Position numbers and translations under genes: made by a program. From IMG/VR virus record IMGVR_UViG_3300021964_012561, positions 50,637 to 114,636 of that record: a stretch of DNA of 64,000 bases. One strand, given 5' to 3'. Source of the stretch: a virus. Shown one piece after another: positions 11,828 through 60,578 of this stretch (position 1 is its first letter; each line of letters starts with the position of its first letter). The notes below the pieces were generated by a model. It ran no database searches and was not told the origin of the DNA. It was given only the letters and a program-made list of their open reading frames with translations.

Positions 11828-12436
11828 ATGAAATTAAATCGATTACAATTAAGAAAAATAATTTTACAAGAAATTCAAAGTTCAATAGACGAAGAGATAA
11901 TATTTGCAAAAGATGGTTATTTAAACTATGGCATGCAATCTCAACATGATCAAGGCCATGTATATAGATCTAAATGTTCTGAATGTGGCTCAAAAATGTA
12001 TGAAGGTGACAAAGTTTGTGAACAATGTGGTTATTCTATGGCAGAAGAAGAAACACGCAAAGAATACATAAGCGAGGGTGCTTGTGGCGGTTGTGGATCA
12101 TGTAGTACTTGCGGCGAAGATGACGGATCAGATTATTCAATAGATACAATGGGAATGGTAGGGGACGCATTACATGCTTTAAATGACGCAGGTTACAATG
12201 TTGATGCAACAAAAAGAAAAGACTATAAAATAGGTAATCATAAAATATTTAAAGGGTCGTATATGGCAAAAAGTCACCTATACAAAGTCAATAAATATTC
12301 AGAAAAGCTTTACCATATGATACCAGACGGTCATAATCTTGAAGACTGGATGAGAACAAAATTAGCACAAATAGCTGATGACATTGGTGAAGTTTATCAC
12401 GCATTAGATCATGATATATTTGAGGGTGATGTATAA
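11828..12436 (+). CDS. Leader-bearing Cys-rich protein (Zn ribbon) with helical C-terminal domain
   Basis: MKLNRLQLRKIILQE leader; CSECG..CEQCG and CGGCGSCSTC; C-terminal MAKSHL..LEDWMRTKL. Confidence 0.7.
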   Translation: MKLNRLQLRKIILQEIQSSIDEEIIFAKDGYLNYGMQSQHDQGHVYRSKCSECGSKMYEGDKVCEQCGYSMAEEETRKEYISEGACGGCGSCSTCGEDDGSDYSIDTMGMVGDALHALNDAGYNVDATKRKDYKIGNHKIFKGSYMAKSHLYKVNKYSEKLYHMIPDGHNLEDWMRTKLAQIADDIGEVYHALDHDIFEGDV

Positions 12437-13711
12437 ATGCCTTATTTACTCCAGGATCTTTTTGAAGAAACAAAAAATCACGGAATAAGAAAAAAAGATA
12501 AAAAAAGAATGGCAAGATCTTGTAAATACATTAAAAATTACAAGCTGCTACCTGAATTAAAGTGCCCAGATCCAACGAGTAAATTGCATAAACAAGACGT
12601 AGAAGAATTGCTTAGCTACTATCATAATCCAACACTTCCTGAAAAGTTCTTAACTAAGTCTCATGAGTCTGTTAAAAAGTTATTTAAAGATTATTGTAAA
12701 GACAACAATTTAAAGCCCAGCTGGAAACAAATTGATGATTATAAAAAAGATGTAAGTACAATAATTTCACACTTAAAATACAGACATAATAGACCTAGGC
12801 CAAAAGAATTTTTAGGTGAAGAATACGATGAAATTAGTGACATGTTTAATCCTTCATTTCCTAGCGGTCATACAGCTTCTGCATATTTTTTTGCTGAAAT
12901 GTTATCTTGCATTTATGAAAATCATAGGCAAGAATTAAAAAAATTAGCACGTTTAATAGGACAATCTAGGCTTGAAAATGGAGTACATTTCCCATCAGAC
13001 ATTCTTTATGGACGTTTTATTGGAGAAACATTAGCGGGATTATGTAAAGAACAAGGGCTACATAAAGATTTAATTGACTTTGAGCTTAAGAAAAACGATA
13101 CAAAAAATTGTAAAGAGTATCTACTTAATAAATTCAAAGATCCTGAACAATTAAAGAATAACATTACTGAATTTATCATACGATCAAATGAAATAGAAAA
13201 AATTAATGTAGATTATCAAGAATGCATTAATGCTGTTGATAACTTTTTATCAGGATATCGACTAGAGAAATGCTCTAAAAATAAAGATATTATGTCACAT
13301 TTAAAAGGCATTGTCGTTGCTCACAAATTACACCCTATTGATAATCCGTATAAAATGATTTTAGTTCATAAGGCTTTTGATAAATCTTGTTTAGACAAAG
13401 GCAGCCCAGGAGAACTAAGGTTTGAGCAAGGTTTTTCAAGTACATCAGGTAATAAGTACGCATCACCTGAAAAAATAATTCCTTATTTGACAAAAATTAA
13501 CAATCATAAAAATGATTATGTCAAACACATTTTGTATGAATGGGTTCATCCATTTAATGACGGTAATGGAAGGTCTGGCAGGATTATTTTACTCTGCAAT
13601 TCAGATTTTGACTTTGACAACGTTTTAGATTTTTGTGGTGACAATTACATTAGTTACATTGTTGATTACATTAACCACTTTAAAGATTTAAATAAGTTAT
13701 TATTTGTGTAA
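12437..13711 (+). CDS. PAP2-family phosphatase fused to a Fic domain
   Basis: PAP2 motifs KYRHNRPRP, SFPSGH, SRLENGVHFPSD; canonical Fic motif HPFNDGNGRSGR. Confidence 0.85.
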   Translation: MPYLLQDLFEETKNHGIRKKDKKRMARSCKYIKNYKLLPELKCPDPTSKLHKQDVEELLSYYHNPTLPEKFLTKSHESVKKLFKDYCKDNNLKPSWKQIDDYKKDVSTIISHLKYRHNRPRPKEFLGEEYDEISDMFNPSFPSGHTASAYFFAEMLSCIYENHRQELKKLARLIGQSRLENGVHFPSDILYGRFIGETLAGLCKEQGLHKDLIDFELKKNDTKNCKEYLLNKFKDPEQLKNNITEFIIRSNEIEKINVDYQECINAVDNFLSGYRLEKCSKNKDIMSHLKGIVVAHKLHPIDNPYKMILVHKAFDKSCLDKGSPGELRFEQGFSSTSGNKYASPEKIIPYLTKINNHKNDYVKHILYEWVHPFNDGNGRSGRIILLCNSDFDFDNVLDFCGDNYISYIVDYINHFKDLNKLLFV

Positions 13712-13734
13712 GTTTTAAAATTTTTGGTTATAAT
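13706..13734 (+). promoter_or_regulatory. Sigma70-type promoter
   Basis: GTGTAA-17 nt-TATAAT upstream of 13758 and the nuclease gene. Confidence 0.55.
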
Positions 13735-13757
13735 AATAACAACTAAAGGGTGTAATT

Positions 13758-14159
13758 ATGGCTAAAATTAAAAGAAGCATATTAAAAGATATTAAAAAAG
13801 CTGCTCGTGAAATTAAAAATCAAGAAGCTAAAGAAAATAAGTCAGAAAATAAACCGCAGTACCAAACTCAACTATCTTATGGTCAAAGACGTCAAATAAG
13901 AGAAGAAGCTTTTAATGACCATAAAGTTAAAGTAACATGGAATATTCATCCTGGTGACTTAGTTAAGATTAAAGCTAGCGCCTCACCAACTGGCGCTGCC
14001 ATATATGGCTTGGTAACATGGGGTATTAAAGAAACAATTCAAAGAGCACCATATTTAGGACACCAAAAAAGCCTGTCTTGGTATGATAGTAAAATTAGAG
14101 TAATGTCACCAGCTGGTTATTATTTTTGTGTAGCTAGCGGAATGATTGTAATTAGTTAA
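13758..14159 (+). CDS. Hypothetical protein with possible KOW/SH3-like C-terminus
   Basis: 133 aa; IHPGDLVKIK motif. Confidence 0.6.
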   Translation: MAKIKRSILKDIKKAAREIKNQEAKENKSENKPQYQTQLSYGQRRQIREEAFNDHKVKVTWNIHPGDLVKIKASASPTGAAIYGLVTWGIKETIQRAPYLGHQKSLSWYDSKIRVMSPAGYYFCVASGMIVIS

Positions 14160-14167
14160 GGAGAAAC

Positions 14168-17299: not shown

Positions 17300-17543
17300 G
17301 ATAGTTTTTATTGACAAAACAAAAGAAAAAGATAACTTTTTTTGTGAAATTTGTAGCTATTCATTAATTACAAAAGAAGATTTTGACACAAATGAAAAAT
17401 ATGATTGTTGTTATAATTGTTTCTTAAAATTCATAGAAAGTAGAAAAAAAGAATGGTTAGCAGGTTGGAGGCCCTCCAAAGATCAGTTAAGCAGCTATTT
17501 AAAAGAAAGAAAACAAATTTCTGAAAAGATAATTAAGATTTAA
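17283..17543 (+). CDS. Small Zn-finger protein
   Basis: CEIC..CCYNC; ATG 17283 with SD GGAG preferred over TTG 17274. Confidence 0.6.
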   Translation: MFTNNKIVFIDKTKEKDNFFCEICSYSLITKEDFDTNEKYDCCYNCFLKFIESRKKEWLAGWRPSKDQLSSYLKERKQISEKIIKI

Positions 17544-17554
17544 AAGGAGAAAAA

Positions 17555-19609: not shown

Positions 19610-19619
19610 AGGCAAATAA

Positions 19620-22506: not shown

Positions 22507-23103
22507 ATGAAATTACTTACAGAGTGGTGTGCATTTAACATAACAAAAGAAATGATTAACGAGTCTAGAGAACGTCATGGAGGAAAATTAGTTTTAAAAG
22601 GTCCGATTCAAAAGTCTAACACTTTAAATCAGAACGGAAGAATCTATCCTAGGGCGATACTTGAAAGAGAAATTATGAATTATCAAAAATTAATTCAAGA
22701 AAATCGTGCAATGGGTGAATGCGATCATCCTGATTCTTCTGTTGTTGAACTTAAAAATGTTTCACACGTAGTAAAAGAAGCTTATATGCAAGGTGACATT
22801 GTATACGGCGCAATAGAAATACTAGATACACCTAGCGGAAAAATTATTCAATCACTAATTGAAAGTGGCGTTACTTTAGGTATTTCTTCAAGAGGCGTAG
22901 GGTCTACACAAAAACAAGGAAATACACAAATAGTACAAGATGATTTTCAGTTAATTTGTTTTGACATGGTATCAGAGCCTTCTACTCCTGGCGCATTTGT
23001 AATGAGAGAGGGAAAAGAAATTTCTCAAGACGAAATTAATAAGATTTTTAACAAAACTGATCGGGTTAATAGAATTTTTAATGATATATTAAACTGGGAG
23101 TAA
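22507..23103 (+). CDS. Prohead maturation protease (T4 gp21-like)
   Basis: NQNGRIYP, GECDHP (catalytic His), GISSRGVGS (catalytic Ser), DMVSEPSTPGA. Confidence 0.95.
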   Translation: MKLLTEWCAFNITKEMINESRERHGGKLVLKGPIQKSNTLNQNGRIYPRAILEREIMNYQKLIQENRAMGECDHPDSSVVELKNVSHVVKEAYMQGDIVYGAIEILDTPSGKIIQSLIESGVTLGISSRGVGSTQKQGNTQIVQDDFQLICFDMVSEPSTPGAFVMREGKEISQDEINKIFNKTDRVNRIFNDILNWE

Positions 23104-23105: not shown

Positions 23106-23555
23106 ATGTCAAAATTATTAAGAAGTGAATTAAAATCTATTGTAAAAGAATGTTTAGTTGAAATATTATCTGAAGGGTTGGCAGAAAACAATAGCAGCAA
23201 TTACATAAAAGAATCTAGCGAATATAATAAAAAATCAATAAAATCAAATGTTAACAAGTCTTCTTATTTGAACAAAATTTCTTATAATCGAGAATCAAGC
23301 AAAAAACAAGATTATGCGCCTGCTAGTAAAATTAAAAATACAAATTTGACATCTGATCCTATTTTGAATGATCTACTTGCTGATACTGCTAAAACTACTT
23401 TGCAAGAGCAACTCTCAGCTGAGTCTCGAAGAGGACCGATGGTAACTACTGGTGGTGATAGAGCAACAATGATAGTAAATCAATCAAATCCGGAAGAATT
23501 ATTTGGAAGTGAAAGTGCCGGCAAGTGGGCTCAACTAGCTTTTTTTGATCAATAA
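23106..23555 (+). CDS. Leader-bearing head-associated hypothetical protein
   Basis: MSKLLRSELKSIVKECLVEILSEG leader; SD GGGAG. Confidence 0.7.
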   Translation: MSKLLRSELKSIVKECLVEILSEGLAENNSSNYIKESSEYNKKSIKSNVNKSSYLNKISYNRESSKKQDYAPASKIKNTNLTSDPILNDLLADTAKTTLQEQLSAESRRGPMVTTGGDRATMIVNQSNPEELFGSESAGKWAQLAFFDQ

Positions 23556-23602: not shown

Positions 23603-23854
23603 ATGAAAAGAAAAATTTTACGTTTGACACCGCTTCTTTTAAAAAAAATTATTAAAGAAGAAAAAGAAAAAATTTTAAAGGAAAGACAACAGAAAAAAAG
23701 TAAGTTAAGTAATCGTCAAATTGTTGAATCATTAAAAAAGTTAGTGTTGCTTAAAAAAGCCCAAAAAAGAGCTGGTAAAGATTTTCAAAAAATCTTTGAA
23801 GAAAGACAAAAAATTAAAAAATTAATCAAGGAGAGCACAAATGGCAGGAACTAA
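23603..23854 (+). CDS. Small highly basic leader-bearing protein
   Basis: SD GGAG before ATG 23603; RLTPLLLKKIIKEE; Lys-rich. Confidence 0.65.
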   Translation: MKRKILRLTPLLLKKIIKEEKEKILKERQQKKSKLSNRQIVESLKKLVLLKKAQKRAGKDFQKIFEERQKIKKLIKESTNGRN

Positions 23855-24338: not shown

Positions 24339-24339
24339 A

Positions 24340-24996: not shown

Positions 24997-26517
24997 ATGT
25001 CAAAAATTTTTGAAGAAGCATTAGCAGATGCAAAAAAACTCAAAGAGGTTGCTGAAGCGAATGCTAAAAAAGCGATTTTAGAATCAGTAACTCCTAGAAT
25101 TAAAGAGTTTATTGAACAACAAATTCTTGAACAAGACGACAAACTAGTTGAATCTAAGAATGACGTCGATGATGTTCCGGAAGAAGCAATGCATGCATTA
25201 TTAGAAATGATTGCAGGTAAAGATCTTGTTAGTAAAATTACTGACAAACAAAAATTAAACGAGGCGTTTAAAAAATCATTTGACAACCTGAATGATTCAG
25301 AACAATTACAAATGAAAAATTTAATACAAAAAATTAATCAAGAAAAAAATAATTTAAAAAGCAGAAGAATAATTAATTCTGTTAACACAATTCAGGAGAA
25401 CAAACAAATGAGTAGTCGTGAAAAATTTTACGAAATTGACTTAGCACTTTTAAGAGAAGCAGTTGATGACAAAGCTGTTGAAATGAAAGCTAAAGAGTTA
25501 GAAGAAGACGATTTTTTAAAAGGTTTAGAAGAAGAAGACAATCAAGCTGAAGAAAAATTAGATGAATATTCTATACTTTTCGAACAAGATGATGCAGACG
25601 AAGCTTCAGAAGAAATGGAAGAATTACCTGATGAAGCTGGTGCTGGTGCAGAAGATGACGCTGTCGAAATTCCTTTAGATCTTGCTCAAGAATTACAATC
25701 AATTTTAGACGCAGAATTAGGAGGTGCTGCTGGTGAAGCTGCCGGTGGAGAGCTTGGTGATCTAGGAGATTTAGGAGCAATGGAAGATTTAGAAGATTCT
25801 GAAGAAGAATCTGAAGAAGAATCAATTGAAGAAATGGGTCACTACGGCATGAATGAAGACGATGTTGACGAACCTCTTAAAGAAATGTTTGATGTTGATC
25901 CTAGCATGCTTCGTGAAGAATTAGCAAGCATTAGATCAATGTTAGGTGAAGGAAAAATGGATCACCACTTTGGTGGAAAAGGCGCCGGAAATGGAGGTCA
26001 TAAAAACGCATTCGGCGGTTCTGGACCCAAGAAACATGGATATCAAAAGTCTTTCGGTGGTGGATCTTATGGAAAAGATGTATTCGTAACTCCTCCTTCA
26101 ACTTTAAAGAAATTAAATGAAGCTATTCAACAGCTTCGCAAATTGAGCCGCATGAATCGAGCTCAAAACGAGAAACTGAATAAATACAGAGGTGCAGTTC
26201 ATACACTTCGTGAACAGTTGGAAGATCTCAACTTATTCAATGCAAAATTACTCTATGTAAATAAGCTTTTACAAAATAAAAATCTAAACGAGTCACAGAA
26301 GAAATCTGTTATCAAAGCTTTAGATGAAGCAAAAAGCTTGGGAGAAACAAAAGCATTGTTCCAATCGCTTACTGAATCATTGTCATCATCTAAGTCAAGC
26401 TTAAATGAATCGACTCGTTTTGGTAGCTCTTCAAGAACAACAACTTCCGGATCAGGAGCTAAAGACAGAAAAGTCGGTGAATCTGATCGTTGGGCGAGGT
26501 TGGCTGGTCTTAAGTAA
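24997..26517 (+). CDS. Prohead scaffolding/core protein (gp22-like)
   Basis: Directly upstream of MCP; acidic coiled coil; EALADAKKLKEVAEANAK, LNLFNAKLLYVNKL; terminal RWARLAGL. Confidence 0.8.
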   Translation: MSKIFEEALADAKKLKEVAEANAKKAILESVTPRIKEFIEQQILEQDDKLVESKNDVDDVPEEAMHALLEMIAGKDLVSKITDKQKLNEAFKKSFDNLNDSEQLQMKNLIQKINQEKNNLKSRRIINSVNTIQENKQMSSREKFYEIDLALLREAVDDKAVEMKAKELEEDDFLKGLEEEDNQAEEKLDEYSILFEQDDADEASEEMEELPDEAGAGAEDDAVEIPLDLAQELQSILDAELGGAAGEAAGGELGDLGDLGAMEDLEDSEEESEEESIEEMGHYGMNEDDVDEPLKEMFDVDPSMLREELASIRSMLGEGKMDHHFGGKGAGNGGHKNAFGGSGPKKHGYQKSFGGGSYGKDVFVTPPSTLKKLNEAIQQLRKLSRMNRAQNEKLNKYRGAVHTLREQLEDLNLFNAKLLYVNKLLQNKNLNESQKKSVIKALDEAKSLGETKALFQSLTESLSSSKSSLNESTRFGSSSRTTTSGSGAKDRKVGESDRWARLAGLK

Positions 26518-26559: not shown

Positions 26560-28530
26560 ATGTCTAGATCATTTAGTTTAAATCAACTGACAGAAGGAAT
26601 CAGAGAACGTCATTTAGGCGCTGATACCTCACGTCTTGTGTCAAAATGGACACGTACCGGTCTTCTTCGAGGACTTAACGAAAACAAGCGCGAAAATATG
26701 GCTCGCATGCTTGAAAATCAAGCGTCTCAACTTCTTCGTGAGGCAAACACCTTAGGAAGCGGTGGATCTGCTAATAACATCGATGGATTCTCTAACATCG
26801 CATTTCCAATCGTTCGTCGTGTATTCGGTGGATTGGTTGCTAATGAATTGGTTTCCATTCAGCCTATGTCACTTCCAAGTGGACTTCTTTTCTACTTAGA
26901 TTACACATACGGTAGTGATATTCACGGTGAAGATGCAGGTGCAGGAAACGCTGCTGATACATCTTCAGCAAACATTTATGGAAAAGGTGATTCTCTTTAT
27001 GGTAATCCTTCTGGAAGTTCTATCCGAACAGGTGCAAATGCAGTTGGCGGTATGTACGACTTAGCTGGTAGTGGTTATTCTTTAGTACATTCTTCCTCAA
27101 ACATTCTTGCTGATAATGATGCAGCTCTAAACGATACTTTCCATGTACACAACATTGCTTCTGCATGGGGTGCATACAATACGGCTGGAACATTTACTAT
27201 TGGTAATTCTTTAGAAATTACTAATAATAAAAACCTTAAATTAATTCAGTATGATCCACAACTTATCAAAGAAATTTCAGAATACAGTACATCTTTTTCT
27301 GTTGGCTTCTTCGAGTTAGGTGAAACTATCAAATCACAATTTGACAGAACCAATGCAAAATCTTGGGGTCTTGTACAACATTTAGGTGCGGTAACTGCTA
27401 TCGATACAAATCTTTTGTCTTTTGATCAAGATGCTTCTGGTAATGCAATTACTGACTCTTCAGGAAACGCTTACCAAGATGGTACGGGTGTTTTTAACCT
27501 TAGAAGACTTAATCAAATTGGTACTTGGAACGCTTCTACCAAGGTTTGGACACCGGACGTGACTGGTGATCACTTATTAGCAGTTTTTAGAGGTGCACCA
27601 GCTGATACAACAGGTCGTACAGCGGCAGTTGAATTGCAACTAGTTGCTCCGGTACTTGATCAAGTATCAGCAGAAGGTGGAACCGGTGGAGTTGTAACTA
27701 TTCCTTCTTTCGAATCTGGATTTTCTGCTGGTTCTACCGGAAATGTTGCTCCAATTATACCTGAAATCGACATCAAGATCGAGTCTATCGCGGTAACAGC
27801 TCAGACACGTAAGTTAAGAGCTCGTTGGTCTCCAGAACTCGCTCAAGATCTTAATGCTTATCATTCAATGGACGCTGAGGTTGAATTGACCCAGATTCTT
27901 TCTGAGCAGATTGCATTAGAAATTGATCGTGAAATTCTTAATGACCTTCTTGTTGAAGCAAAAGGTGCTAACTACTACTGGTCACGTGCTCCTGGTAAAT
28001 TCGTTAAGAAAGACACCGGTGCAGTTGCTTCTAGTACAATTGGTCCTAACTTTACTGGTACAGTTCGCGAATGGTACGAAACTCTTGTTGAAACCATTAT
28101 CGACGTTGCTAATGAAATTCATAGAAAGACTCTTCGTGGAGCTGCTAACTTTATCGTGGTATCACCTGAAGTTGCAACTATTTTCGAAGCATCAGTTCTT
28201 TACAAGCCAAGCATCAAAATTGATGGACAAGGACAGACATCTGCTCCTTTCTCTATCGGTGCAGAGTCGATTGGATCTCTTTCTAACAGATTTACTGTTT
28301 ACAAAGATCCTTACTTCCCACGCAACAAGATCCTTGTAGGATACAAAGGTGGATCATACCTTGAGTCTGGATACGTCTATGCTCCTTATGTACCACTTAT
28401 CGTTACTCCTACAATCTTCGCACCTGAAGATTTCACACCAAGAAAAGGTGTAATGACTCGTTACGGTAAGAAAATGGTACGTGCCGATTTCTACGGAACA
28501 GTTACATGCCTTGACATGGACATTATCTAA
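26560..28530 (+). CDS. Major capsid protein (T4 gp23-like)
   Basis: PIVRRVF..ELVSIQPMSLPSGLLFYL, TRKLRARWSPELAQDLNAYH, EIDREI, YAPYVPL, GVMTRYG; highly biased codon usage. Confidence 0.97.
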   Translation: MSRSFSLNQLTEGIRERHLGADTSRLVSKWTRTGLLRGLNENKRENMARMLENQASQLLREANTLGSGGSANNIDGFSNIAFPIVRRVFGGLVANELVSIQPMSLPSGLLFYLDYTYGSDIHGEDAGAGNAADTSSANIYGKGDSLYGNPSGSSIRTGANAVGGMYDLAGSGYSLVHSSSNILADNDAALNDTFHVHNIASAWGAYNTAGTFTIGNSLEITNNKNLKLIQYDPQLIKEISEYSTSFSVGFFELGETIKSQFDRTNAKSWGLVQHLGAVTAIDTNLLSFDQDASGNAITDSSGNAYQDGTGVFNLRRLNQIGTWNASTKVWTPDVTGDHLLAVFRGAPADTTGRTAAVELQLVAPVLDQVSAEGGTGGVVTIPSFESGFSAGSTGNVAPIIPEIDIKIESIAVTAQTRKLRARWSPELAQDLNAYHSMDAEVELTQILSEQIALEIDREILNDLLVEAKGANYYWSRAPGKFVKKDTGAVASSTIGPNFTGTVREWYETLVETIIDVANEIHRKTLRGAANFIVVSPEVATIFEASVLYKPSIKIDGQGQTSAPFSIGAESIGSLSNRFTVYKDPYFPRNKILVGYKGGSYLESGYVYAPYVPLIVTPTIFAPEDFTPRKGVMTRYGKKMVRADFYGTVTCLDMDII

Positions 28531-28601: not shown

Positions 28602-29135
28602 ATGAAAATAAGTAAAAAAGATTTAAAAATGTTAATTGAAAATTATGTAAGCGAAGGATGGGCTGATCAAGTAAATTCAAATTATGCTGATGGGATGAGA
28701 GACAGCTTAAAAGGTGCTGGTTTCAAAGAAGATAATATGTGGGACATGAATTCTCACTATAAGGCAGCTGATACTTTTCATGCACATCTACAGCAAGGTT
28801 ATGATTATGAAACTGATATGAATGGAGACGATGTACAAATTGATGAAGAAGTAGAAACTCCTAAAGGGGAAGTTTCAATAGTTCCTTGCCCTAATGGCTT
28901 GACTGTGTTAATTGGTAAAAATGGTGCACCAGATTTGCTAGTGCCAAAATATTCTAAAAAGAGTACACGTGAGCCTAAGGTTTTATCATCACAAGAAAAA
29001 GCTGTTGTAGCTTTTATAGAAAAGTATGGTAAGAAATTTAAAACAGACAATGAAAGACTAAGAGTAGAAAAATCAGGTTTAACTCCGTACACTAAATTAT
29101 CTGTTAATGGGTATAGCATTTGTTTTGTTCCTTAA
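28602..29135 (+). CDS. Leader-bearing hypothetical protein
   Basis: SD GGAG then MKISKKDLKMLIENYVSEG; the ORF-track start at 28560 lies inside the terminator. Confidence 0.7.
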   Translation: MKISKKDLKMLIENYVSEGWADQVNSNYADGMRDSLKGAGFKEDNMWDMNSHYKAADTFHAHLQQGYDYETDMNGDDVQIDEEVETPKGEVSIVPCPNGLTVLIGKNGAPDLLVPKYSKKSTREPKVLSSQEKAVVAFIEKYGKKFKTDNERLRVEKSGLTPYTKLSVNGYSICFVP

Positions 29136-29471: not shown

Positions 29472-30065
29472 ATGTTTTTTTTGTTGTTTCTTTTAAGTTT
29501 TTTATCTTTTGGAGGTGAGCCGCAACCTGACATGTCGATTACGGTAACTGCAGTTAAAGGTGTGACAATTTTTGTTGACAAACCTATTGTTATAGGTGGA
29601 GGAGAAACTTATCAATCTTCTGAATTAGAATTTTTAATTACAAGTTATGCGACTTTACATAAAGAAACTTTTGTCAAAGATCCGCGAATGATAAATAGTA
29701 TTTATAACGCATCAACTGTCCAAACGGTTAATTCTGAATGTAACTGGTTAGGTAATTCAATAGATTGTGCAACTTCTGAATATATGTATGTTTTAAAAAC
29801 GCAGGTGGTTATTAATCCTGTTAGAGCATACGTCACAGTTACACTGCATGACCACAGAATGAATGCAGTTTCTTCAGCTACAGTATCCAATAAACATCAA
29901 AGAAGTGTAATACAGCTGGTACAGCAAACACAATCTCAAGGCTTGTTAGGTAGTACAACAACTACAAATCCTCAAAAGCCAGAAATATTTAGCGTAGAGC
30001 CGTATCTTTATGAAAAAGATTTTCGCCAAGCTGTTATTTTAATGTATAGCTCATTTCGATTTTAA
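29472..30065 (+). CDS. Putative exported protein with signal peptide
   Basis: SD AGGAG; hydrophobic N-terminus MFFLLFLLSFLSFG. Confidence 0.6.
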   Translation: MFFLLFLLSFLSFGGEPQPDMSITVTAVKGVTIFVDKPIVIGGGETYQSSELEFLITSYATLHKETFVKDPRMINSIYNASTVQTVNSECNWLGNSIDCATSEYMYVLKTQVVINPVRAYVTVTLHDHRMNAVSSATVSNKHQRSVIQLVQQTQSQGLLGSTTTTNPQKPEIFSVEPYLYEKDFRQAVILMYSSFRF

Positions 30066-30400
30066 ATGAAATCTTTCCAAGCGTGAGGTTTTCTATCTTT
30101 AAGGTAATTTAAGTCTTTGTCGTTTTCATACGCTTCTCTTTCAAATGGAATTGCATAATAAGCTTTTCTACCATTTAAACCTTCTAATCTCGCTTTAAGC
30201 CAGTACCATACATAAAGAACATAAAAACCAATCAACCAGAGTTCTCTCTGTTGAACAAGGTGAATCTTTTCGTGATTGTATACAGTAACATCAAGCTTTT
30301 CTTTTGAAATAATAAACGGGTATAACGTAATCGCATAGACATCAATAAAAAGACTCATTGCTTTGCAAAATTTTGGGCTAATTATTATTATTGGTTTCAT
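30062..30400 (-). CDS. Small HExxH (zincin-like) membrane-associated protein
   Basis: HEKIHLVQQRE..FEREAY; hydrophobic stretch; SD AGGAG before ATG at 30400. Confidence 0.7.
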   Translation of the reverse strand: MKPIIIISPKFCKAMSLFIDVYAITLYPFIISKEKLDVTVYNHEKIHLVQQRELWLIGFYVLYVWYWLKARLEGLNGRKAYYAIPFEREAYENDKDLNYLKDRKPHAWKDFI

Positions 30401-30401
30401 G

Positions 30402-31328
30402 TTATCTCCTATTGTATGGATATTTAGGCTTGAGTGTGTCAACAGCGAACCTACCACCTCTATTTGGATCTAGTAAGTATTGTAATGTTTTATAAAGCAC
30501 CTCCATTGTCATGCCAATGTCTGCAGTAGCTTCATGCCACGATTCATTGTCAATTTCAAATGCTGTTGCCATCATGCCTAGGCGGCTAGCAAGATAAGGT
30601 TTTCCTTTATACGATAATGCTGTGATACTGTCGATAATGTGTTTGTCTTCTGCATTCATTTCTGACTCATTTTTTTGCACATATTGTAAAACTGCTTTTA
30701 AATAATTATCAATAATTGCGATAGAATCCATTACGGCAATGTCTGGTGCATTTAGTCCACCTCTTTGGTAAAAAAGATTTGTCATTTTTGCGTCAAAAGG
30801 AGAATTGTGGGCCCAAAAAACTATTTTTCCTGTGGGGCTGGCTGTTTTTTGGGCCTGTATGTATTGATTAAACATTTCAGCGCCTTCTGCTTGATTAACA
30901 CGAGGTACACCATCACCACCATAATAATCATTCATGTCTAAAAGCCCTGGAATTGAGTATTTTGGGTCGCCTTGATAAGTTCCAGCATCAAGTTGGGCTT
31001 GTTGCCTTTGAATTTCAGTCTCAGTGTCGGATGTTAGTATAATCTTAACATTAAACATTCCATCGTTGACTGGGGAAGGTATTTGTTCTAATCCATTTGG
31101 TTCATAAGCTATAGCAGCTAACTGAGTAATTTGTACGAAATTAGGAACAGAACCGTCTTTGTTGGGTAAACCTGTCGTTTCTGTATCAAAAAAGACCCAA
31201 TTGTGTTGCGCAAGATCTTTAAGTTTGGAAATCATGGCAGAAAATTCAGGTGGGTAAAAACTAGGGCTAACTGAACGTTCATTTATAAACTTGCGCCACT
31301 CAGTTAAAATTTGCTTCATGTTATTCAT
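30402..31328 (-). CDS. DEDDh 3'-5' exonuclease (DnaQ/epsilon-like)
   Basis: ExoI FFDTETTGL, ExoII AHNSPFD, ExoIII WHEATADI; SD AAGGAG. Confidence 0.88.
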   Translation of the reverse strand: MNNMKQILTEWRKFINERSVSPSFYPPEFSAMISKLKDLAQHNWVFFDTETTGLPNKDGSVPNFVQITQLAAIAYEPNGLEQIPSPVNDGMFNVKIILTSDTETEIQRQQAQLDAGTYQGDPKYSIPGLLDMNDYYGGDGVPRVNQAEGAEMFNQYIQAQKTASPTGKIVFWAHNSPFDAKMTNLFYQRGGLNAPDIAVMDSIAIIDNYLKAVLQYVQKNESEMNAEDKHIIDSITALSYKGKPYLASRLGMMATAFEIDNESWHEATADIGMTMEVLYKTLQYLLDPNRGGRFAVDTLKPKYPYNRR

Positions 31329-32400: not shown

Positions 32401-32751
32401 ATGTCTCAGTTAAACAGAAAACAGTTGAGAAAAATGCTTTTAAAAGAATTTAAAATGATTGGAATGGCTAGTCCGCATGTAGGAATGTTGGGAAGTTCAC
32501 CATTTCAGCAAAATGATCATGGTTGTGATGCATGTGGAATGTCACCTTGTGGATGTGACGAGCATGAAGATCATGATCATGGACAATTTAGTATGACAGT
32601 TGGAAAAGCTGATTATGTAGGTGGTCATAAAGGACAAGTTTCAAAAGAAGATTGTTGCAAAGCTGTGCTTTGTCTTATTGAATGCTGTGATTGTCCTGAA
32701 ACGAAAGCATTACTTCAGGAATGTTGCGAAGATATTCTTTCTCGTTGTTAA
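32401..32751 (+). CDS. Leader-bearing Cys/His-rich (metallothionein-like) protein
   Basis: SD GGAGG; MSQLNRKQLRKMLLKE; CDACGMSPCGC, HEDHDH, CC..C..CCDC..CC..C. Confidence 0.7.
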   Translation: MSQLNRKQLRKMLLKEFKMIGMASPHVGMLGSSPFQQNDHGCDACGMSPCGCDEHEDHDHGQFSMTVGKADYVGGHKGQVSKEDCCKAVLCLIECCDCPETKALLQECCEDILSRC

Positions 32752-32759
32752 TTTTATAG

Positions 32760-33149
32760 ATGTATCTAACTCGTCGCAATCTTCGATCATTGATTCTAGA
32801 ATCTATCAGTGAGATTTTAAGTGAAGCTGATCCGAAAGTAGGCACAGGTAAAAAGCCAAAAGGATCAGGTCGAAGATTGTATACAGACGAAAACCCAAAA
32901 GATACAGTTCGTGTTAAATTTTCAAATGTTTCAGATATTAGAAAAACATTTTCTAAAAAAAGTTTTAAGTCAAAATCACATAAGCGTCAATCACAAATAA
33001 TTAATTTGGTACACCAAAGGGTTCGAGCAGCATATAAAAATGCAAAAGATCCAAAAGTTAAAAAACGTTTAAAAAAAGCTTATGATTATGCTAAAAAAAG
33101 AAAAGAAGCAAGCAAAAGAAAAACAGAAAGAATGAGAAAGAAAAAATGA
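32760..33149 (+). CDS. Leader-bearing highly basic protein
   Basis: MYLTRRNLRSLILESISEILSE; GTGKKPKGSGRRLYTDENPKDTV; Lys/Arg-rich. Confidence 0.7.
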   Translation: MYLTRRNLRSLILESISEILSEADPKVGTGKKPKGSGRRLYTDENPKDTVRVKFSNVSDIRKTFSKKSFKSKSHKRQSQIINLVHQRVRAAYKNAKDPKVKKRLKKAYDYAKKRKEASKRKTERMRKKK

Positions 33150-33523
33150 AACTAACAAGAGCGTTTTTAAGAAATTTAATTAAAGAAGTTAAAGGTGACA
33201 AGTCTTGCAAAAAAGCAACACAAGATCCTGAGTACAATAAAAAGAAAAAAGAAATTGCAGCTTCAAAAAAAGACGTTGCATATGGTCCTTCTAGCAGGCC
33301 TGAATTAAAAGATTATGCAAAGAAAGGCAAACTTTGTGGTAATTGTGGTGCATTTGATGTAACAAAAGAAATGCAAAATTGCATGAATGTTAAATACCCA
33401 AAAAAAATCGACGCTAACTTTTTAATTAAAGGTAAAAAGAAAGGCTACTGTTTAATGCATGACTTTATGTGTTCAGGTCATAAGACTTGTTTGACTTGGG
33501 GTTCAGGCGGTCCGAAAAAATGA
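33146..33523 (+). CDS. Leader-bearing Cys-cluster protein (putative Fe-S or Zn binding)
   Basis: MKLTRAFLRNLIKE; CGNC..C..GYCLMHDFMC....C..W; ATGA overlaps on both sides. Confidence 0.7.
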   Translation: MKLTRAFLRNLIKEVKGDKSCKKATQDPEYNKKKKEIAASKKDVAYGPSSRPELKDYAKKGKLCGNCGAFDVTKEMQNCMNVKYPKKIDANFLIKGKKKGYCLMHDFMCSGHKTCLTWGSGGPKK

Positions 33524-33870
33524 AACTTACTAGGCAAAAATTAAAATCGCTTATTCTTGAAATCTTTTTACAAGAAAAAAAGAAACGTAAAAAGCGTAAA
33601 AAGAAAAAGATTGATTATAAAAAAGCCTATAAAAAATACCACAGTTCAAAAAAAGCTAAACAAGAGCGTGCACAAAGAAATGCTGCTGGCCGAAAATTAA
33701 AAAAGATGGGTGTTAAAATACCTAGTGGTTATGAAATAGATCATAAAAATCCGATAAATAGTGGTGGATCAAATGATTTGTCTAACTTAAGAATAATTCC
33801 TCGTGGTAAAAATAGAGCTTTAGGACAAAAAATAACAACTGCAAAAAGAAAAAAGAACGGGAGTTATTAA
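33520..33870 (+). CDS. Leader-bearing HNH endonuclease-like protein
   Basis: ATG 33520 overlaps the upstream stop; MKLTRQKLKSLILE; EIDHKNPINSGGSNDLSNLRIIPRGKNR. Confidence 0.8.
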   Translation: MKLTRQKLKSLILEIFLQEKKKRKKRKKKKIDYKKAYKKYHSSKKAKQERAQRNAAGRKLKKMGVKIPSGYEIDHKNPINSGGSNDLSNLRIIPRGKNRALGQKITTAKRKKNGSY

Positions 33871-35097
33871 ATGAAACTTACCAGAAGACAATTAAGAAAA
33901 TTAATATTAGAACAGATTAGCAATACTACATTTAAAGATGCTGAAGAGTCTGGAGTAATTCCCGAACCGGAGCATAGTACAGATCCTTACCCAGGAAAGA
34001 TAAAGTTTCCTGGTCATTCTGCAGCTGATGCAGAGCATAGAAGAGCAACCGATTTTATGAATCCTGAATATAAAGCTACACCTTTAGAACGTCAAAGAAT
34101 TAAGAATAAGGCATATGGAAATTATGTTAAAAACTTACAACAAGGTATGGAAAAAGGGGACGCTGAGCGTTTGTATGATGCACAATCTAAAGGATATCCG
34201 GACTACCTCACTATGGAGCGAGATTTAGGTAGAAAAGAAGCTTACTCTTTCCACAGCTACAACGATATGGAATTAGATCAAAAAACAAGAGAAGAGTTAG
34301 CTGCAGAATTTCCTGACATGGATTTTACAGATGTGCAACCTAGCGTTGATCTTAAATTAAGTAGCATGATAAAAAAGTTTAGAGACGAGAGTCCTGGTGG
34401 CAGAACAACAGTTTATAAACTTAACAGTTTTATTAGAGATCTAGTAGCAACTGACATATCAAAACAAGATACTGAAGTTGGAGAATTTATAGCTGCTAAT
34501 CGACCAAATTTTCTTAAGGATTATCAAGAAAAAGGTTATTATAAGGACACAAAGCTAAATGAAAATAAATTTACAAGAAAAGATTTAAGAAGCTTAATGA
34601 ACGAAGAGTTAAAAAGATTGTCATATGTCAGTAAAGAACAAGGACATACATACGGGATTGAACATTTACCCGATCAATATGATCAGAAAAAAGCAGACGA
34701 TATAATAGGACACACCTGACTGACTCATGTTCGGAAGAAGGGTTCTTCCTTAAATGAAGTTGGTTTTGTTCTTTGGCATTCCTTAAATGAAAGTGGTCAT
34801 GTTGCAATTTATGATGTTGAATGGCCTAACGGAACAATTGAAAGAAACATACCTGCACGTCTTTTAGAAAAAGTAAAAGATAGTAATGATAGTGTTGATG
34901 AACATGATGAGCATGGAGTTGTAGGTCATGAAGAAGACTCACTGTTAGGCGAAAGAAAATATAAAAAAAGAAAGAAGAAAAAGAAGTCAACAAAGAAAAA
35001 GCCTAAGTATTGGTATCTAGGTGGTTATGGAATAGACCATGATCATGATTTTGCTGATTTTGATGGAGACTTCGGCGGAGATGGAGGCGGAGAATGA
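33871..35097 (+). CDS. Leader-bearing protein with in-frame UGA at 34717-34719; candidate selenoprotein (408 aa with read-through, 282 aa without)
   Basis: Frame stays open 125 codons past the TGA and ends in an ATGA overlap with 35094; context GHT-U-LTHV; hairpin right after the UGA. Confidence 0.7.
34723..34760 (+). promoter_or_regulatory. Candidate bacterial-type SECIS element
   Basis: GGAAGAA(34733-39)-GGG-TTCTTCC(34743-49) perfect stem; lower stem TCAT/ATGA; G-containing loop starts 20 nt after the UGA. Confidence 0.65.
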
Positions 35098-35732
35098 AAA
35101 TAACAAGAAAAAATCTTAACATACTGATAGAAAGGTACTTAAAAGAGTCAGATGAAAAAACAGTGCCAGGCGATAAATTCATTGACATACTAGATAAAAA
35201 GCAAAAAAAGCAAGAAAAAAACATACATGCTGTGACAGATTTTAGAAAAGGCAGTGATAGGGGTCAATTTCCTCCATTGACGTTTGGTCCAGGAGTGGAC
35301 GATGAAGGTAATTTAGAGGGTGGTAAATTTACAACTGTCCATGATTATCACGAACCTGACCCATATGATCATGCTGCTGTTAGAAGATACAAAAAACAAC
35401 ACTATTTAGGTCCTGATGATAAGTCCGTAGATGATCCTGAAATTACAAGAATTGGCTTAGAAGACGATGAAGATACTGAAGAGTCTCCTTTTGGAACACA
35501 ATATTCTTTAGATGCTACAGATCCACAATTTAGAATGGATGATAGGACTGTAGAAGATGATGGTTTTACCGCACACAGCGATGATGACTTTCACATGGAA
35601 GACGAGTACGATGAAGATTATGAAGAATCTGAAGATTATACAGAAGAAGATACTCTTTATGATATAGACGATGACAGTGAAGATGATGGTTTGATTGCAA
35701 AAATTAGAAAGTTTTTTTCTGGAAAGAAATAA
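35094..35732 (+). CDS. Leader-bearing highly acidic protein
   Basis: MKITRKNLNILIERYLKE; Asp/Glu-rich C-half; SD GGAGG. Confidence 0.75.
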   Translation: MKITRKNLNILIERYLKESDEKTVPGDKFIDILDKKQKKQEKNIHAVTDFRKGSDRGQFPPLTFGPGVDDEGNLEGGKFTTVHDYHEPDPYDHAAVRRYKKQHYLGPDDKSVDDPEITRIGLEDDEDTEESPFGTQYSLDATDPQFRMDDRTVEDDGFTAHSDDDFHMEDEYDEDYEESEDYTEEDTLYDIDDDSEDDGLIAKIRKFFSGKK

Positions 35733-38856: not shown

Positions 38857-38912
38857 TTAAATGATGTTTCTATGTTTTTAAGATAATTAATTAAGAATTG
38901 AAGGAGTTATGA

Positions 38913-41900
38913 ATGGCCGAACAAACATTTAAGTCCCCGGGGTTTTTTGAAAGAGAAATTGATGCTTCTCAAAGAACAGCATCAAGATCGTTTAGTGTCC
39001 CAGGTGGAATTATAGGAATAGCAAGTAGAGGGCCTGCTTTTGTTCCAAAAACAATTACGTCAATGAACCAATTTATCACAAATTTTGGAGATATCAAACC
39101 AGAACAATTTGGAGCAATTGCAGCACATGAATTTTTAAAATTAAGACCTGCTATTACTTTTACAAGAGTCCTAGGCGCAGGATCGATACAAAACGGTTCA
39201 GACTTAGATAACTACACTACATTAGGTATTGTAGCAAATGCTGGATTTTCTTTAAGTGGTTCAGTTAATAGTACACCTGGGCATGCTGAAAGGAGTGATG
39301 GTAGAGATGAAGGTTGTGTTCAGTTTATTTCAGCTAAGCACGAAATACAAACCAACGAACAGCATACTTACCCGATTTTTACTGATAATCAATCGATATC
39401 TAGCAGTACTGCTTATCTTATCAGAAGCATGGTACTTTTAGCTTCGGGTGCACGCTTAGAAATATTAGATCACAACGAATCTTATGCTACAACTGGAAGT
39501 GCAAATGATTTAGCGAGAATTAGTAACTATACAGGGCAAATTAAAAATCAAGGAACGTTTAAGGTTGTCATTTCTTCATCTTTAGGAAGTAGCTTTTCTA
39601 ATGACGAATTAAATCCAGGTATTAAAATTTACACAGCGTCTTTGAATCCTGATTCTGATTATTATGTAGGAAAGATTTTAAACACAAGTTATGATTTATT
39701 TGACTCAAAGCAACATTTACTTCTTGCAGATTTTGTCGTAGAAAATGACATTGCAAAAGTTGAGTATCATGCTACAAATGAAACTGTTGCAGTTTTATCC
39801 GGATCTAGAAGTACTTCTGCAAATGGTGATACAACTAAATACTTTAGAGAAGTATTTGGTTCATTTAATACTAGATACCAAAATGCAAAAACTACATCTT
39901 TTATTTCTCAGCCTTATGGATCCTTAGAATATGATTTATTTCATTTTGAAACATTATCAGACGGTGAAAGTGCAAATAAACTAGTATCTGTTTCTATTGC
40001 TAATTTAAAAAAGTCTGAAGATGTTAACGATCCATATGGGACATTTACCGTTCAAGTAAGAAAATATTCAGACGATGACAACAATCCTGTTATTTATGAA
40101 CAATTTAATAATTGCAACTTAAATCCAGATAGTGAAGATTATGTTGGAAGAAAGATAGGTGATTTAAACGTTTATTATAATTTTAATACAGTTTTAGAGA
40201 GTGAAAGAGGGTTAGCACAAAAAGGAACTTATTCAAATCAATCTAATTTCATAAGAATTGTCTTAAATCCAAACGTTACAAATAAAATAATTCCTAAGAC
40301 AGCTTTACCTTTTGGTTTTAGAGGATTACCTGTTCCTAAAACAACAGATACTTTAACATCTAATTCAACAGCTTTACCTGGTTTAGGAGGTCCAAGTATT
40401 AGATTGGGTGTCTCAGGTTCAGTTTCAGCATTTAAGTATTCAGTAGTCCCACCGGTTCCTATGACTTTTAAAGTAACAAAAGGAAACGGAAATACATCTC
40501 CTGGTTTTACCGGTCATGCTAGTCAAAATGAATTAATAAATAGCAATATTTATTGGGGCATTCAACAAGGTAGACTATACAAAAATACTAACATTGATAG
40601 CAGTGTAGGTCTTAGAAACCCAGAACTGCAGTCGAATAGTAGGTTATTTAATGAGCCTAGTCTCATCGATGCATACAGTAAATTTTTAGGAATACAAAAA
40701 TTAGATGCACTAGTAACCGGTTCTGGTGCAGATGCATTTAATAATAATAAATTTTCTCTTTCAAAAGTAGCATTAAATAATCAATCAAATAGCGCAGATA
40801 CTTTATCAGCTGCTGTTGCTAGAGAATTAACCGGTTCTGCTGACGAACACATGATTGATGCTGCTTACATCAGAAATGCATCTCTAGATCTTCCTAATTT
40901 GACTATTAATGATAATGTTTCAAATACAAGAAGACTAACGTTCGCATCTCTAGCAGCATCTAGCGCTAATACTTTTAATAAGTTTTCTAAGTTTGCTAAA
41001 TTTACCAATGTTTTTTACGGTGGTTTCGATGGCTTAAACATTGTCGATAAAGATGCACGGTTAATGAATGACAAAGCTTCTTCCCTGGAGACAGGGGGTA
41101 AGGCCAATGGAGGAGAAATAAGTTATCAAAACCTCCATGCAGGATCTTCACCTGGCAAAGGTTTAAGAAATAACATTGTCTCTGCTTATTTAGATGCTGC
41201 TAATGTGATGACACAAGAAGGCGTTACAAACATTAACACTTTAATCGTTCCTGGTATTAGAGAAAAATTAATTACAAACAAAGTTTCAGAAAAAGTAAAA
41301 GACAATTCAAAAATTATTTATTTAATGGACATACCTAGTTATGACAAAAACAACATAAGAAAGTTCGACGAATCAGCTGATTTACTAGACATAGGAAAGA
41401 CAGTAGATAAATTTAAAGCTAGAAACATTGACAACAATTTTGTTGCAACATACTTTCCAGATACATTTATTTCAACTGAAGCTGTTAGAAAAATTGTTAA
41501 AGTTCCAGCTTCCGTTTCAGCATTTCAAGCGTTAGCTTATAATGATAATGTTAGCTATCCTTGGTTTGCACCAGCAGGCTTTAACAGAGGTGCTTTAGAA
41601 AATGTTGTAAATACAGATTATAAATTAAACACTGCAGATAGAGATACACTATACGAAGCAAGAATTAATCCTATAGCAAATTTTGCGAATGGTAAGGTCG
41701 TAATTTTTGGACAAAAAACATTACAAATGAGCAGGTCAGCTTTGGATCGAGTTAATGTAAGAAGAATGGTTTTAGAAGTAAAAAGAATTGTTTCTAGAAT
41801 TGCCGGTGATTTTGTATTTGAACAAAACACTCAAATTTTAAAAGATAGATTTATTGCTCAAGTTACGCCTCAATTATCTATAATTCAGTCGCAACAAGGC

Positions 41901-52582: not shown

Positions 52583-52586
52583 CCAA

Positions 52587-52889
52587 ATGGCTACATCAAG
52601 ATATTCCTTTATAAATAAATTAAGCATTTCTAATAAAATTATTTACGCTACAACTAATCATTCTTTTAGAATTAATAAGGCAATAAATAGCGGTTTTTTA
52701 AGTTTTAATACATATATTTTAAAAGAAGGCGAAAGAATTGATCAAATTGCTTTTAAATTTTACGGAGATTCTCAATATTGGTGGATAATCGCTGCAGCAT
52801 CAGGTATTGGCTGGGGATTACAAATACCTCCAGGAACTATTTTAAGAGTTCCTGAAAGTTTAAATGCAGCCTTAGGTATAAGTAGATGA
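52587..52889 (+). CDS. LysM-like baseplate wedge protein (gp53/tail X-like)
   Basis: YILKEGERIDQIAFKFYGDSQYWWIIAAAS..IPPGTILRVP. Confidence 0.85.
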   Translation: MATSRYSFINKLSISNKIIYATTNHSFRINKAINSGFLSFNTYILKEGERIDQIAFKFYGDSQYWWIIAAASGIGWGLQIPPGTILRVPESLNAALGISR

Positions 52890-56743: not shown

Positions 56744-56744
56744 C

Positions 56745-56773
56745 TTGTAAAAAATTAAACTTTATTTTATTAT
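56745..56773 (+). promoter_or_regulatory. Sigma70-type promoter
   Basis: TTGTAA-17 nt-TATTAT. Confidence 0.5.
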
Positions 56774-56783
56774 AAAAATAAAA

Positions 56784-57791: not shown

Positions 57792-57799
57792 TTATTAAC

Positions 57800-59149: not shown

Positions 59150-59151
59150 TT

Positions 59152-59180
59152 TTGTAACCTACACACACACAAAGTATAAT
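59152..59180 (+). promoter_or_regulatory. Sigma70-type promoter of SSB
   Basis: TTGTAA-17 nt-TATAAT. Confidence 0.65.
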
Positions 59181-59190
59181 TGCCTAGCAA

Positions 59191-59232
59191 TTAAAAATTA
59201 AAAATTAAATATTGCACATTAAACATTAAAAA
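59191..59232 (+). promoter_or_regulatory. Putative gene-32-type autogenous translational operator
   Basis: Five TTAAA units (59191, 59198, 59205, 59219, 59226) directly before the SD of SSB. Confidence 0.5.
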
Positions 59233-59244
59233 CGGAGAAAAATC

Positions 59245-60027
59245 ATGGCTATTGATTTTGAAGCTATCAAGCGCAAACTAGAACGACTAAGCGGTAACAA
59301 TAAATCACAAAACGTAATGTGGAAACCACAACCTGACGAAGAATACAATGTTCGTCTTATGAGTTTTCCAGACAATGACGGTCAACCTTTTAAAGAGTTG
59401 ATGTTTTATTACAACATTCCTGGACAGCGAGGTCTTCTTGCACCATCTCAGTTTGGTGAACGAGATCCAGTTCAAGAATTGATTAATAAACTTCGTGATG
59501 AAGGTACAAAAGAAAGCTACGAAATGGCTAAAAAATTGTATCCTAAAATGCGAGTTTATGCTGCTGTGGTTGTAAGAGGTGAAGAAGACAAAGGAGTACA
59601 ATTGTGGGGGTTTGGAAAGCTTGTCTATCAAAAACTTCTTGGAATTATGCTTGATGAAGATTATGGAGATATTACTGATCCTAAATCAGGACGTGATATT
59701 AAAGTAATTTGTTCAAAGCCGCCTGGTCAACAATGGGCAAAAACAGAAATTCTTCCTCGAGGTAGATCAACAAAACTATCTGATGATACATCTCAAGCAA
59801 AAGAATGGATGACAAATATACCTGATACAAAAGGTATTTTTAAGACAAAATCTTACGATGAACTTAGTAAAATCGTAAATGATTGGCTTAATGGTGACAA
59901 TGAAGATGATGAAGGTACTGAAAAATTTGGAAGTAATAATTCAGATTCTGATGATACACCAAAATCAGGTGGTGGAGGAAAATCTTATAATGACTTAGAT
60001 GATGCATTTGCAGATTTAATGTCTTAA
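59245..60027 (+). CDS. Single-stranded DNA-binding protein (T4 gp32-like)
   Basis: WKP..VRLM, VQLWGFGK, YGDITDPKSGRDI; acidic tail DLDDAFADLMS. Confidence 0.88.
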   Translation: MAIDFEAIKRKLERLSGNNKSQNVMWKPQPDEEYNVRLMSFPDNDGQPFKELMFYYNIPGQRGLLAPSQFGERDPVQELINKLRDEGTKESYEMAKKLYPKMRVYAAVVVRGEEDKGVQLWGFGKLVYQKLLGIMLDEDYGDITDPKSGRDIKVICSKPPGQQWAKTEILPRGRSTKLSDDTSQAKEWMTNIPDTKGIFKTKSYDELSKIVNDWLNGDNEDDEGTEKFGSNNSDSDDTPKSGGGGKSYNDLDDAFADLMS

Positions 60028-60092
60028 AAAAGTCAGTTAAGATTTAAAATTTGGCGCCTAATTAGTTTTAAACAGTAAAGCAAGGAATAACA

Positions 60093-60578
60093 ATGAAAAT
60101 TTCTAGAAAAAACTTAAACAAACTAATTAGGCGTCATCTTATTAATGAAGGAATACTTGATACAATATCAGGTGCAATTTCAGGTGCAGCTGAAGGCCTC
60201 ACAAATATATTTACACGAGGAGCTGTTAAGTCAACAATGGTAAAAGCTTCATCAGAAGATGCCTATCAGCTTTTTAATGCAATGCAGGGATTAGGAACAA
60301 CTGAATCTGTTGTGAAAGACATTATTAGAAGAAGAGAACTAGAACAATCTTTGGTTGGATTATATGATGAATATAACAATCTTTTAAAGTTTTTTAATGA
60401 TGACTTTTGGGGAAAATATTCTATTAACAGCCTAATGAAGGCATCACAGTGGGATGGAGACTTGATTTCTTGGCTAGAAGGCGACGGCATGGATGAAGAA
60501 GCTAGGCTAGTTAAAGATGCATTAATAAAGGCAGATAAAAAAAGAGAAGAGGTTGACATAACACTTTTTGGCATGTAA
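60093..60578 (+). CDS. Leader-bearing protein with one annexin-like repeat
   Basis: MKISRKNLNKLIRRHLINE; DAYQLFNAMQGLGTTESVVKDIIRRR..DLISWLEGD. Confidence 0.7.
   Translation: MKISRKNLNKLIRRHLINEGILDTISGAISGAAEGLTNIFTRGAVKSTMVKASSEDAYQLFNAMQGLGTTESVVKDIIRRRELEQSLVGLYDEYNNLLKFFNDDFWGKYSINSLMKASQWDGDLISWLEGDGMDEEARLVKDALIKADKKREEVDITLFGM

Follow-up and report, generated by a model that had tools for sequence, protein, structure and literature searches.

The window analyzed here (64,000 nucleotides, positions 50,637 to 114,636 of IMG/VR record IMGVR_UViG_3300021964_012561) is the final 64 kb of a 114.6-kb contig from an uncultured, marine, giant T4-like phage, with a CheckV completeness of 28%. 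It is AT-rich (GC content about 0.32), carries nearly all of its genes on the same strand, and encodes a series of proteins headed by a common N-terminal leader, which follows the 14-residue pattern M-K-[IL]-[TNS]-[RK]-x-x-L-[RK]-x-[LI]-I-x-E in ten open reading frames (ORFs). The initial annotation had listed eleven such proteins. All eleven N-termini were found at the positions it gave, and ten are solid carriers based on a position-specific scoring matrix (PSSM) of 11 columns (scores of 15.5–35.6), whereas the eleventh, 23603, is marginal only (6.3). Genes are named by their first position in the window, and those bearing the leader are as follows:

11828..12436, plus strand: tagged ORF beginning MKLNRLQLRKIILQE (PSSM 28.1)
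23106..23555, plus strand: conserved tagged protein directly after the protease gene, candidate prohead-core protein (PSSM 15.5)
23603..23854, plus strand: small lysine-rich protein with a diverged leader containing a one-residue insertion, marginal member (PSSM 6.3)
28602..29135, plus strand: tagged ORF of the LIENYxxE subtype (MKISKKDLKMLIENYVSE), just past the terminator of the major capsid protein gene (PSSM 22.6)
32401..32751, plus strand: tagged ORF of the LLKEF subtype with 13 Cys, first of a six-gene cassette (PSSM 24.9)
32760..33149, plus strand: tagged ORF with very basic cargo (isoelectric point [pI] 10.8; PSSM 25.1)
33146..33523, plus strand: tagged ORF, basic, 7 Cys (PSSM 22.1)
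33520..33870, plus strand: tagged ORF with leader, Lys-rich linker, and small HNH (beta-beta-alpha-metal) domain (PSSM 24.6)
33871..35097, plus strand: tagged ORF read through an in-frame TGA at 34717-34719 (N-terminal PSSM 35.6)
35094..35732, plus strand: tagged ORF of the LIERYLKE subtype with very acidic cargo (pI 4.3), last gene of the cassette (PSSM 24.4)
60093..60578, plus strand: tagged ORF between gp32-like and RecA/UvsX-like genes (PSSM 25.2)

The ten solid carriers are all of these except 23603. The next N-terminal PSSM scores in the window belong to 13758 (8.0) and 23591/23603 (6.3), with the remainder below 5. A strict regular expression for the leader matched 8 of 1632 possible ORF starts on the 114.6-kb contig, each of them a true gene start. 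Its core motif occurred eight times in 37,592 amino acids, every time N-terminally, compared with 0.16 occurrences expected from 500 shuffles, and shuffled proteomes contained no PSSM matches.

Four large related contigs (137–237 kb, 53%–77% complete) were retrieved entire and form, with the window contig, a set of five (G000, G001, G003, G004, and G005; 832 kb, 922 genes), in which a PSSM score of ≥12 was taken to indicate a tag carrier. PSSM matches in this set were N-terminal in 105 out of 114 cases, and most others were GTG starts over-extended by the crude gene caller used on these contigs. A stricter regular expression picked 84 carriers for cargo grouping, domain searches, and derivation of a consensus, M-K-[IL]-[TNS]-[RK]-[RK]-Q-L-[RK]-x-[LI]-I-x-E-x-[LIF]-x-[ED], beyond which conservation collapses; the subtypes LIENYLxE, LILKEF[KR]D, and LLxExLLLE can be distinguished. 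The initial annotation proposed that the tag ends in the type of site cleaved by T4 gp21 ([LI]-x-E), and this agrees with the wider sample: 97 of the 105 N-terminal matches have a Glu within three positions past the L-I pair, with [LIVM] two residues earlier every time (i.e., [LIVM]-x-E). A codon comparison of the five most canonical window leaders showed that 45 of 80 identical residues use different codons, which indicates selection on the peptide rather than on the DNA. The description of the leader as an amphipathic helix was dropped because the leaders do not exceed shuffled sequences in hydrophobic moment.

Leader-like residues were also seen in other proteins of the window. A 133-aa ORF at 13758-14159 starts with MAKIKRSILKDIKKAAREIK, a weak look-alike (the PSSM 8.0 entry above) lacking the terminal Glu, and its G001 orthologue is preceded by an enriched upstream motif, TAGTTATAAT. 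A 409-aa tail-region protein (6725-7954) has a leader-like stretch at residues 12–24 (IKTTRSNLNQLID, PSSM 18.2), which is not N-terminal and lacks Glu; it is conserved in G003 and may be due to chance or represent an old tag.

BLAST comparison of the window ORFs showed that the parts downstream of the leader are unrelated, as first described, and the cargo of the 84 carriers fell into 67 BLAST groups. Only 3 of the 84 matched Pfam families (zinc ribbon, LysM, and TseH-like NlpC/P60) and 7 matched PHROGs, one being the 5'-3' deoxyribonucleotidase family, whereas 84 random untagged proteins of similar size matched 43 Pfam families. Because carriers are depleted in known domains, the tag marks a special class of accessory proteins and not a random gene sample, and this depletion fits accessory proteins of the internal-protein type. 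Housekeeping and structural genes are untagged. Cargo encoded in the window is either very basic (32760, 33146, 33520, and 23603) or acidic. In G001, the cargo of 32760 makes up the last ~100 residues of a 407-aa tagged protein, and that of 33520 the last ~70 residues of a 377-aa one. The cargo modules of 32760, 33520, and 33871 recur in differing tagged proteins; hence, the leader is kept in front even though domains are reshuffled. The notion of a modular N-terminal tag common to unrelated proteins is upheld by these observations (84 carriers, 67 cargo groups, and reshuffled domains with the tag retained). Two tagged proteins of G004 have recognizable enzymatic domains. One is a TseH-like NlpC/P60 hydrolase (81560-82642; L085:1563-2642, minus strand; E = 4.2e-6, just at the Pfam cut-off). 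The other is a HAD-type protein (38789-39460; L082:18792-19460, minus strand), which is probably the source of the PHROG 5'-3' deoxyribonucleotidase match and in which the leader lies only a few residues ahead of the DMDG motif.

The cassette genes illustrate this modularity. Six tagged genes are consecutive at 32401-35732, as initially annotated, and an apparent 374-nt gap among them is the read-through extension of the fifth gene. Orthologues of 32401 were found in G001 and G004, and of 35094 in G001. The cargo of 32760 is 86%–88% identical to the C-terminal ~100 aa of the tagged 407-aa protein of G001 and of a 430-aa tagged protein in G004; its look-alikes in the ESM Atlas are unnamed viral clusters, the nearest named family being DUF5771 at 0.79, a weak lead. 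Assignment of 33520 to the HNH nucleases, also made initially, holds: the protein has an EIDH...N...N motif, and many of its 97 metagenomic homologues carry PF01844 (82/97 have an N-terminal leader), while the window protein alone falls below the Pfam cut-off. An AlphaFold2 (AF2) model of 33520 (predicted local distance difference test score [pLDDT] of 88.4) places the leader in a helix spanning residues 5–28, and HNH nucleases make up nearly all of its top Foldseek matches (probability up to 0.99, root mean square deviation 0.7–3.4 Å), although with weak E-values (≥0.08).

The longest cassette member, 33871, has a second, internal leader-like copy, KFTRKDLRSLMNE (about 34567-34605, residue 233, PSSM 15.7), preceding a conserved C-terminal module. 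In three genomes this module sits 245, 58, or 0 residues behind the N-terminal leader (0 in G004), and in some metagenomic proteins it is fused to an HNH domain via a Lys-rich linker. After the in-frame TGA the frame stays open for 125 more codons, and conservation across four divergent contigs covers both the TGA and its flanks (DDIIGHT-TGA-LTHV[RK][RK]K..). About 16 nt downstream lies a hairpin in which two pairs differ between genomes by compensatory changes. The contigs also use TGA as a normal stop codon, in 18%–27% of their genes, and no tRNA gene occurs in the window; these features fit either selenocysteine insertion or programmed read-through.

Outside the cassette, protein 11828 consists of the leader, a variable Cys-rich zinc-ribbon stretch (Pfam Zn_Ribbon_1, E = 2.4e-5), and a conserved C-terminal helical domain, and a five-genome alignment of its family shows a conserved leader and C-terminus around a variable middle. 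An AF2 model of the family built from these five sequences was unusable (pLDDT 42). The LIENYxxE leader of 28602 heads at least eight proteins in relatives. For 60093, whose neighbor 59245 is a Pfam gp32 protein, the annexin-like domain suggested initially was not sustained (Pfam E = 0.024, below the cut-off). The ORF abutting 11828 (12437-13711) encodes a PAP2 phosphatase (E = 3.7e-16) with a Fic domain (E = 6.6e-6), and its product begins MPYLLQDLFEE, which contains an L-x-E-type site and has no leader.

The tag is widespread in the relatives. A profile search of their proteomes, which had been proposed as a check, showed the leader to be clade-wide, heading 107 of the 922 genes in the five contigs (about 12%), or 10/102, 20/155, 11/148, 37/256, and 29/261 genes per contig. 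Relatives of the 22507 protease are encoded by 457 stretches in IMG/VR. Inspection of 80 protease-centered loci revealed at least one tagged ORF in 53, always on the same strand as the head genes, and in most of the 80 a tagged ORF directly follows the protease gene, mostly with the leader MxKLSRxxLKxIVKECLVEILxEG. A degenerate DNA pattern for MKITRRQLRxLI matched 38 stretches in IMG/VR, all of them marine contigs, and the two largest of these contigs checked also encode the S77 protease. A word-based search with residues 1–40 of 33871 in a set of 5.8 billion proteins returned two candidates, such a search being unsuited to counting carriers. Among cultured phages, the nearest capsid proteins are those of Flavobacterium phage immuto (46% identity), Microcystis phage Mel-JY01, and Rhodothermus phage RM378, and immuto encodes about five shorter leader look-alikes (e.g., MKKSQLRQIIKE).

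Several tagged genes lie within a head module that includes the following genes:

17987: large terminase
19620: T4-type portal
22507..23103, plus strand: prohead maturation protease, T4 gp21 family
24997..26517, plus strand: putative scaffold, gp22-like by position and composition only
26560..28530, plus strand: major capsid protein (MCP), gp23-type (phrog_138, E = 8.4e-75)
35818: head-completion-like gene

Membership of 22507 in the gp21 protease family, asserted from the outset, is well founded (Pfam Peptidase_S77, E = 2.1e-25, 89.8 bits versus a cut-off of 27; phrog_207, E = 3.6e-53). Its tagged neighbor 23106 is conserved in the first 25 and last ~70 aa across 48 distinct orthologues, with a variable middle, and three tandem [LIV]-x-E sites lie within the highly conserved first 25 residues. 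The marginal member 23603 has five [LI]-x-E sites (1.9 expected) and a G003 orthologue that scores 15.5. The putative scaffold, 24997, is located between the protease and MCP genes, has a gp22-like size, is acidic, and contains 25 [LI]-x-E sites where its composition predicts 10.3, a density unmatched by any other protein of >100 aa; it matched no Pfam, PHROG, or NCBIfam entry, and an NCBIfam search of head-module and cargo proteins gave nothing above noise. The initial annotation noted leader-like helices in this protein (EIDLALLRE and DVDPSMLREEL); both peptides are present, but they bear no PSSM resemblance to the leader.

The MCP contains conserved candidate maturation sites at LTE|G (residues 10–12) and LRE|AN (59–63), and its E61-A62-N63 is invariant in six phages, including the cultured immuto. 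LRE|AN lies roughly where T4 gp23 loses its propeptide of 65 residues (PMC5694885). Overall, the MCP has 656 aa compared with 536 aa in immuto, and in its N-terminal region the marine clade is about 20 residues longer (alignment columns about 131–150). Between the MCP and the head-completion-like gene, all five genomes carry a cassette of three to eight tagged genes that differs in content, much as the internal-protein loci vary among T-even phages (PMC9026906).

We consider it probable that the leader serves as a head-loading and clipping tag resembling the capsid-targeting sequence (CTS) of T4 in greatly expanded form. The T4 CTS occurs on IPI, IPII, IPIII, and Alt and is removed by gp21 (Mullaney and Black 1996, as reviewed in PMC9026906, PMC5694885, and PMC3012670), which cleaves at L/I-x-E (PMC9026906). 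For packaging of IPIII its first 10 residues are enough, whereas processing depends on residues 8 and 10 (PMC9026906; also PMC5694885 and PMC3012670). Replacing the Glu at the end of the T4 CTS by Asp abolishes its processing (PMC9026906). By analogy, the leader would act as a short propeptide at the N-terminus by which otherwise unrelated proteins attach to the scaffolding core during prohead assembly. The 22507 protease would then remove it by cleavage behind the Glu of [LIVM]-x-E, where another site of this type often follows 4–6 residues beyond the first, and the freed cargo would stay inside the head, at least part of it probably being ejected with the DNA. We infer core binding, cleavage, packaging, and ejection from T4, as well as the use of the leader motif as a cleavage site by 22507 itself, and the link between the tag and the head is indirect. 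It is made by the [LIVM]-x-E ending of the leader, the Peptidase_S77 protease, the tagged gene beside it, the cassettes of the five genomes, the [LI]-x-E enrichment of the putative scaffold, LRE|AN in the MCP, and, weakly, the upstream element RATAATTA.

The likeness to T4 includes a short N-terminal peptide on unrelated accessory proteins that ends in hydrophobic-x-Glu, a Peptidase_S77 protease gene beside small core-protein genes, and a cargo set that varies among relatives. Differences are the length of the leader (14–19 residues versus 10 in T4), its subtypes with a second conserved element (see above), an internal copy before a module in one protein, and about ten times more use (10–37 tagged genes per contig), in a system known here from sequence alone. 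Giant phages provide a further parallel: in phiKZ, 201phi2-1, and SPN3US, diverged homologues of gp21 cleave behind Glu to release head and ejection proteins from long N-terminal propeptides (PMC5694885, PMC9026906), and the propeptides of their many internal head proteins have been proposed to direct these proteins into the prohead. However, those propeptides comprise 80–160 residues, whereas here one short consensus heads >100 proteins, and the same two papers report no common tag in the phiKZ group apart from identical first residues in one paralogue pair. The anti-restriction protein DarB of phage P1 has an N-terminal signal sufficient to send a heterologous protein into a myovirus capsid (PMC9024508), i.e., a packaging signal of the kind proposed for the leader; unlike the leader, it was shown for one protein, and that study reports neither a shared tag nor protease removal.

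Several observations weigh against this interpretation. Tagging of about 12% of genes is far above the handful in T4, and the T4 sequence MKTYQEFIAE has only its starting M-K and final hydrophobic-x-E in common with the leader, which we therefore regard as an analogue (functional counterpart) and not a homologue of the T4 CTS. The exact tag has no carrier among cultured phages, in which blastn of the cassette, tblastn of the 22-aa leader, and tblastn of the 23106 protein yielded no match. The scaffold is a putative one, assigned from position and composition. In 60093, Arg stands where Glu is expected, and the first [LI]-x-E occurs at residues 17–19 (INE). An upstream 8-mer, RATAATTA, is located 15–38 nt before the MCP, sheath, and scaffold orthologue genes and several tagged genes, including cassette members, but its enrichment in the window is weak (38 matches versus 22 expected), so it is taken as a hint of late co-expression, not as evidence. 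Long tagged arrays in relatives are distant from the head genes, and 11828 and 60093 sit among replication and recombination genes. As the genes for T4 internal proteins are likewise scattered, carriers outside the head module neither refute nor support a role in loading.

The breadth of tagging, the remote arrays, and the two replication-region genes would also be explained if the leader docked or sorted proteins to a partner other than the core (e.g., a membrane site, another assembly, a chaperone, or a modifying enzyme), with the terminal Glu serving recognition and not cleavage. We consider this unlikely given that the protease-adjacent tagged gene and the head-module cassette are conserved, that the end of the tag is a site of the type expected for the encoded protease, and that transmembrane or hydrophobic segments are not enriched among carriers (7/113 versus 79/809). 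A recognition tag for a radical-SAM maturase finds no support, since PF04055 had no match in the five contigs (28%–77% complete), while 14 of 14 control genomes were positive.

Less likely still, the leader might be an inhibitory pro-peptide that silences potentially harmful effectors, such as the HNH nuclease and the NlpC/P60-like hydrolase, until the head protease removes it, without a role in packaging. Some cargo does consist of nucleases or hydrolases, and the protease-type site at the end of the tag would suit such activation, but a 14-residue helix is unlikely to inhibit each of >60 unrelated folds. Moreover, since proteases of the gp21 type work within the prohead (PMC9026906, PMC5694885), a protein would still have to be encapsidated to be cleaved.

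It is highly improbable that the leader is a by-product without a protein-level role (a paralogous-family remnant, recombination joint, or mRNA/translation-initiation signal): tandem arrays of tagged genes are what duplication predicts, and highly expressed genes often have AAA-rich second codons, but conservation ends right after the Glu, housekeeping and structural genes are untagged, and the paralogue-family and mRNA-signal explanations were rejected because both the codons for conserved residues (45/80 comparisons) and the cargo folds (zinc ribbon, HNH, NlpC/P60-like, HAD, and LysM) are diverse.

The CTS-like interpretation can be extended, although we are inclined to doubt the extended form somewhat more than to accept it: well over 100 different, rapidly exchanged proteins of the clade would be loaded into the capsid by one address tag and delivered with the DNA, and internal tag copies would be protease-cut joints of multi-module cargo. 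If so, the cargo would include an HNH nuclease, an NlpC/P60-like hydrolase, a HAD nucleotidase-like enzyme, and the conserved in-frame-UGA protein, and roughly a tenth of the genome would constitute a swappable "injected proteome." Should the tag work like the T4 CTS, the encapsidated or injected proteomes of many uncultured ocean phages could be listed directly from their sequences, and >100 unknown protein families would become candidate host-takeover or anti-defense effectors. For packaging foreign proteins in phage heads, the leader would supply a second tag that is longer and by nature very permissive, and the T-even "internal protein" idea would be enlarged by an order of magnitude in giant phages. 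We found no paper on expanded CTS-like tags in uncultured phages.

Within the otherwise plus-strand contig, a minus-strand island of two genes (30062-31328) encodes a 308-aa product that is conserved in G001 and has a loosely leader-like beginning, MNNMKQILTEWRKFINE. With regard to promoters, the T4 late promoter TATAAATA was rejected as a candidate because it is not enriched in the window (8 matches versus 9.5 expected). The 8-mers ATAGTTAT and TAGTTATA (motif ATAGTTATA) showed a 13-fold intergenic enrichment (G001 32662, G003 82872, and other loci among L093–L118). This motif is found 5–51 nt upstream of tail-sheath genes in two genomes, other structural genes, and four tagged genes, and is a candidate late promoter of the clade.

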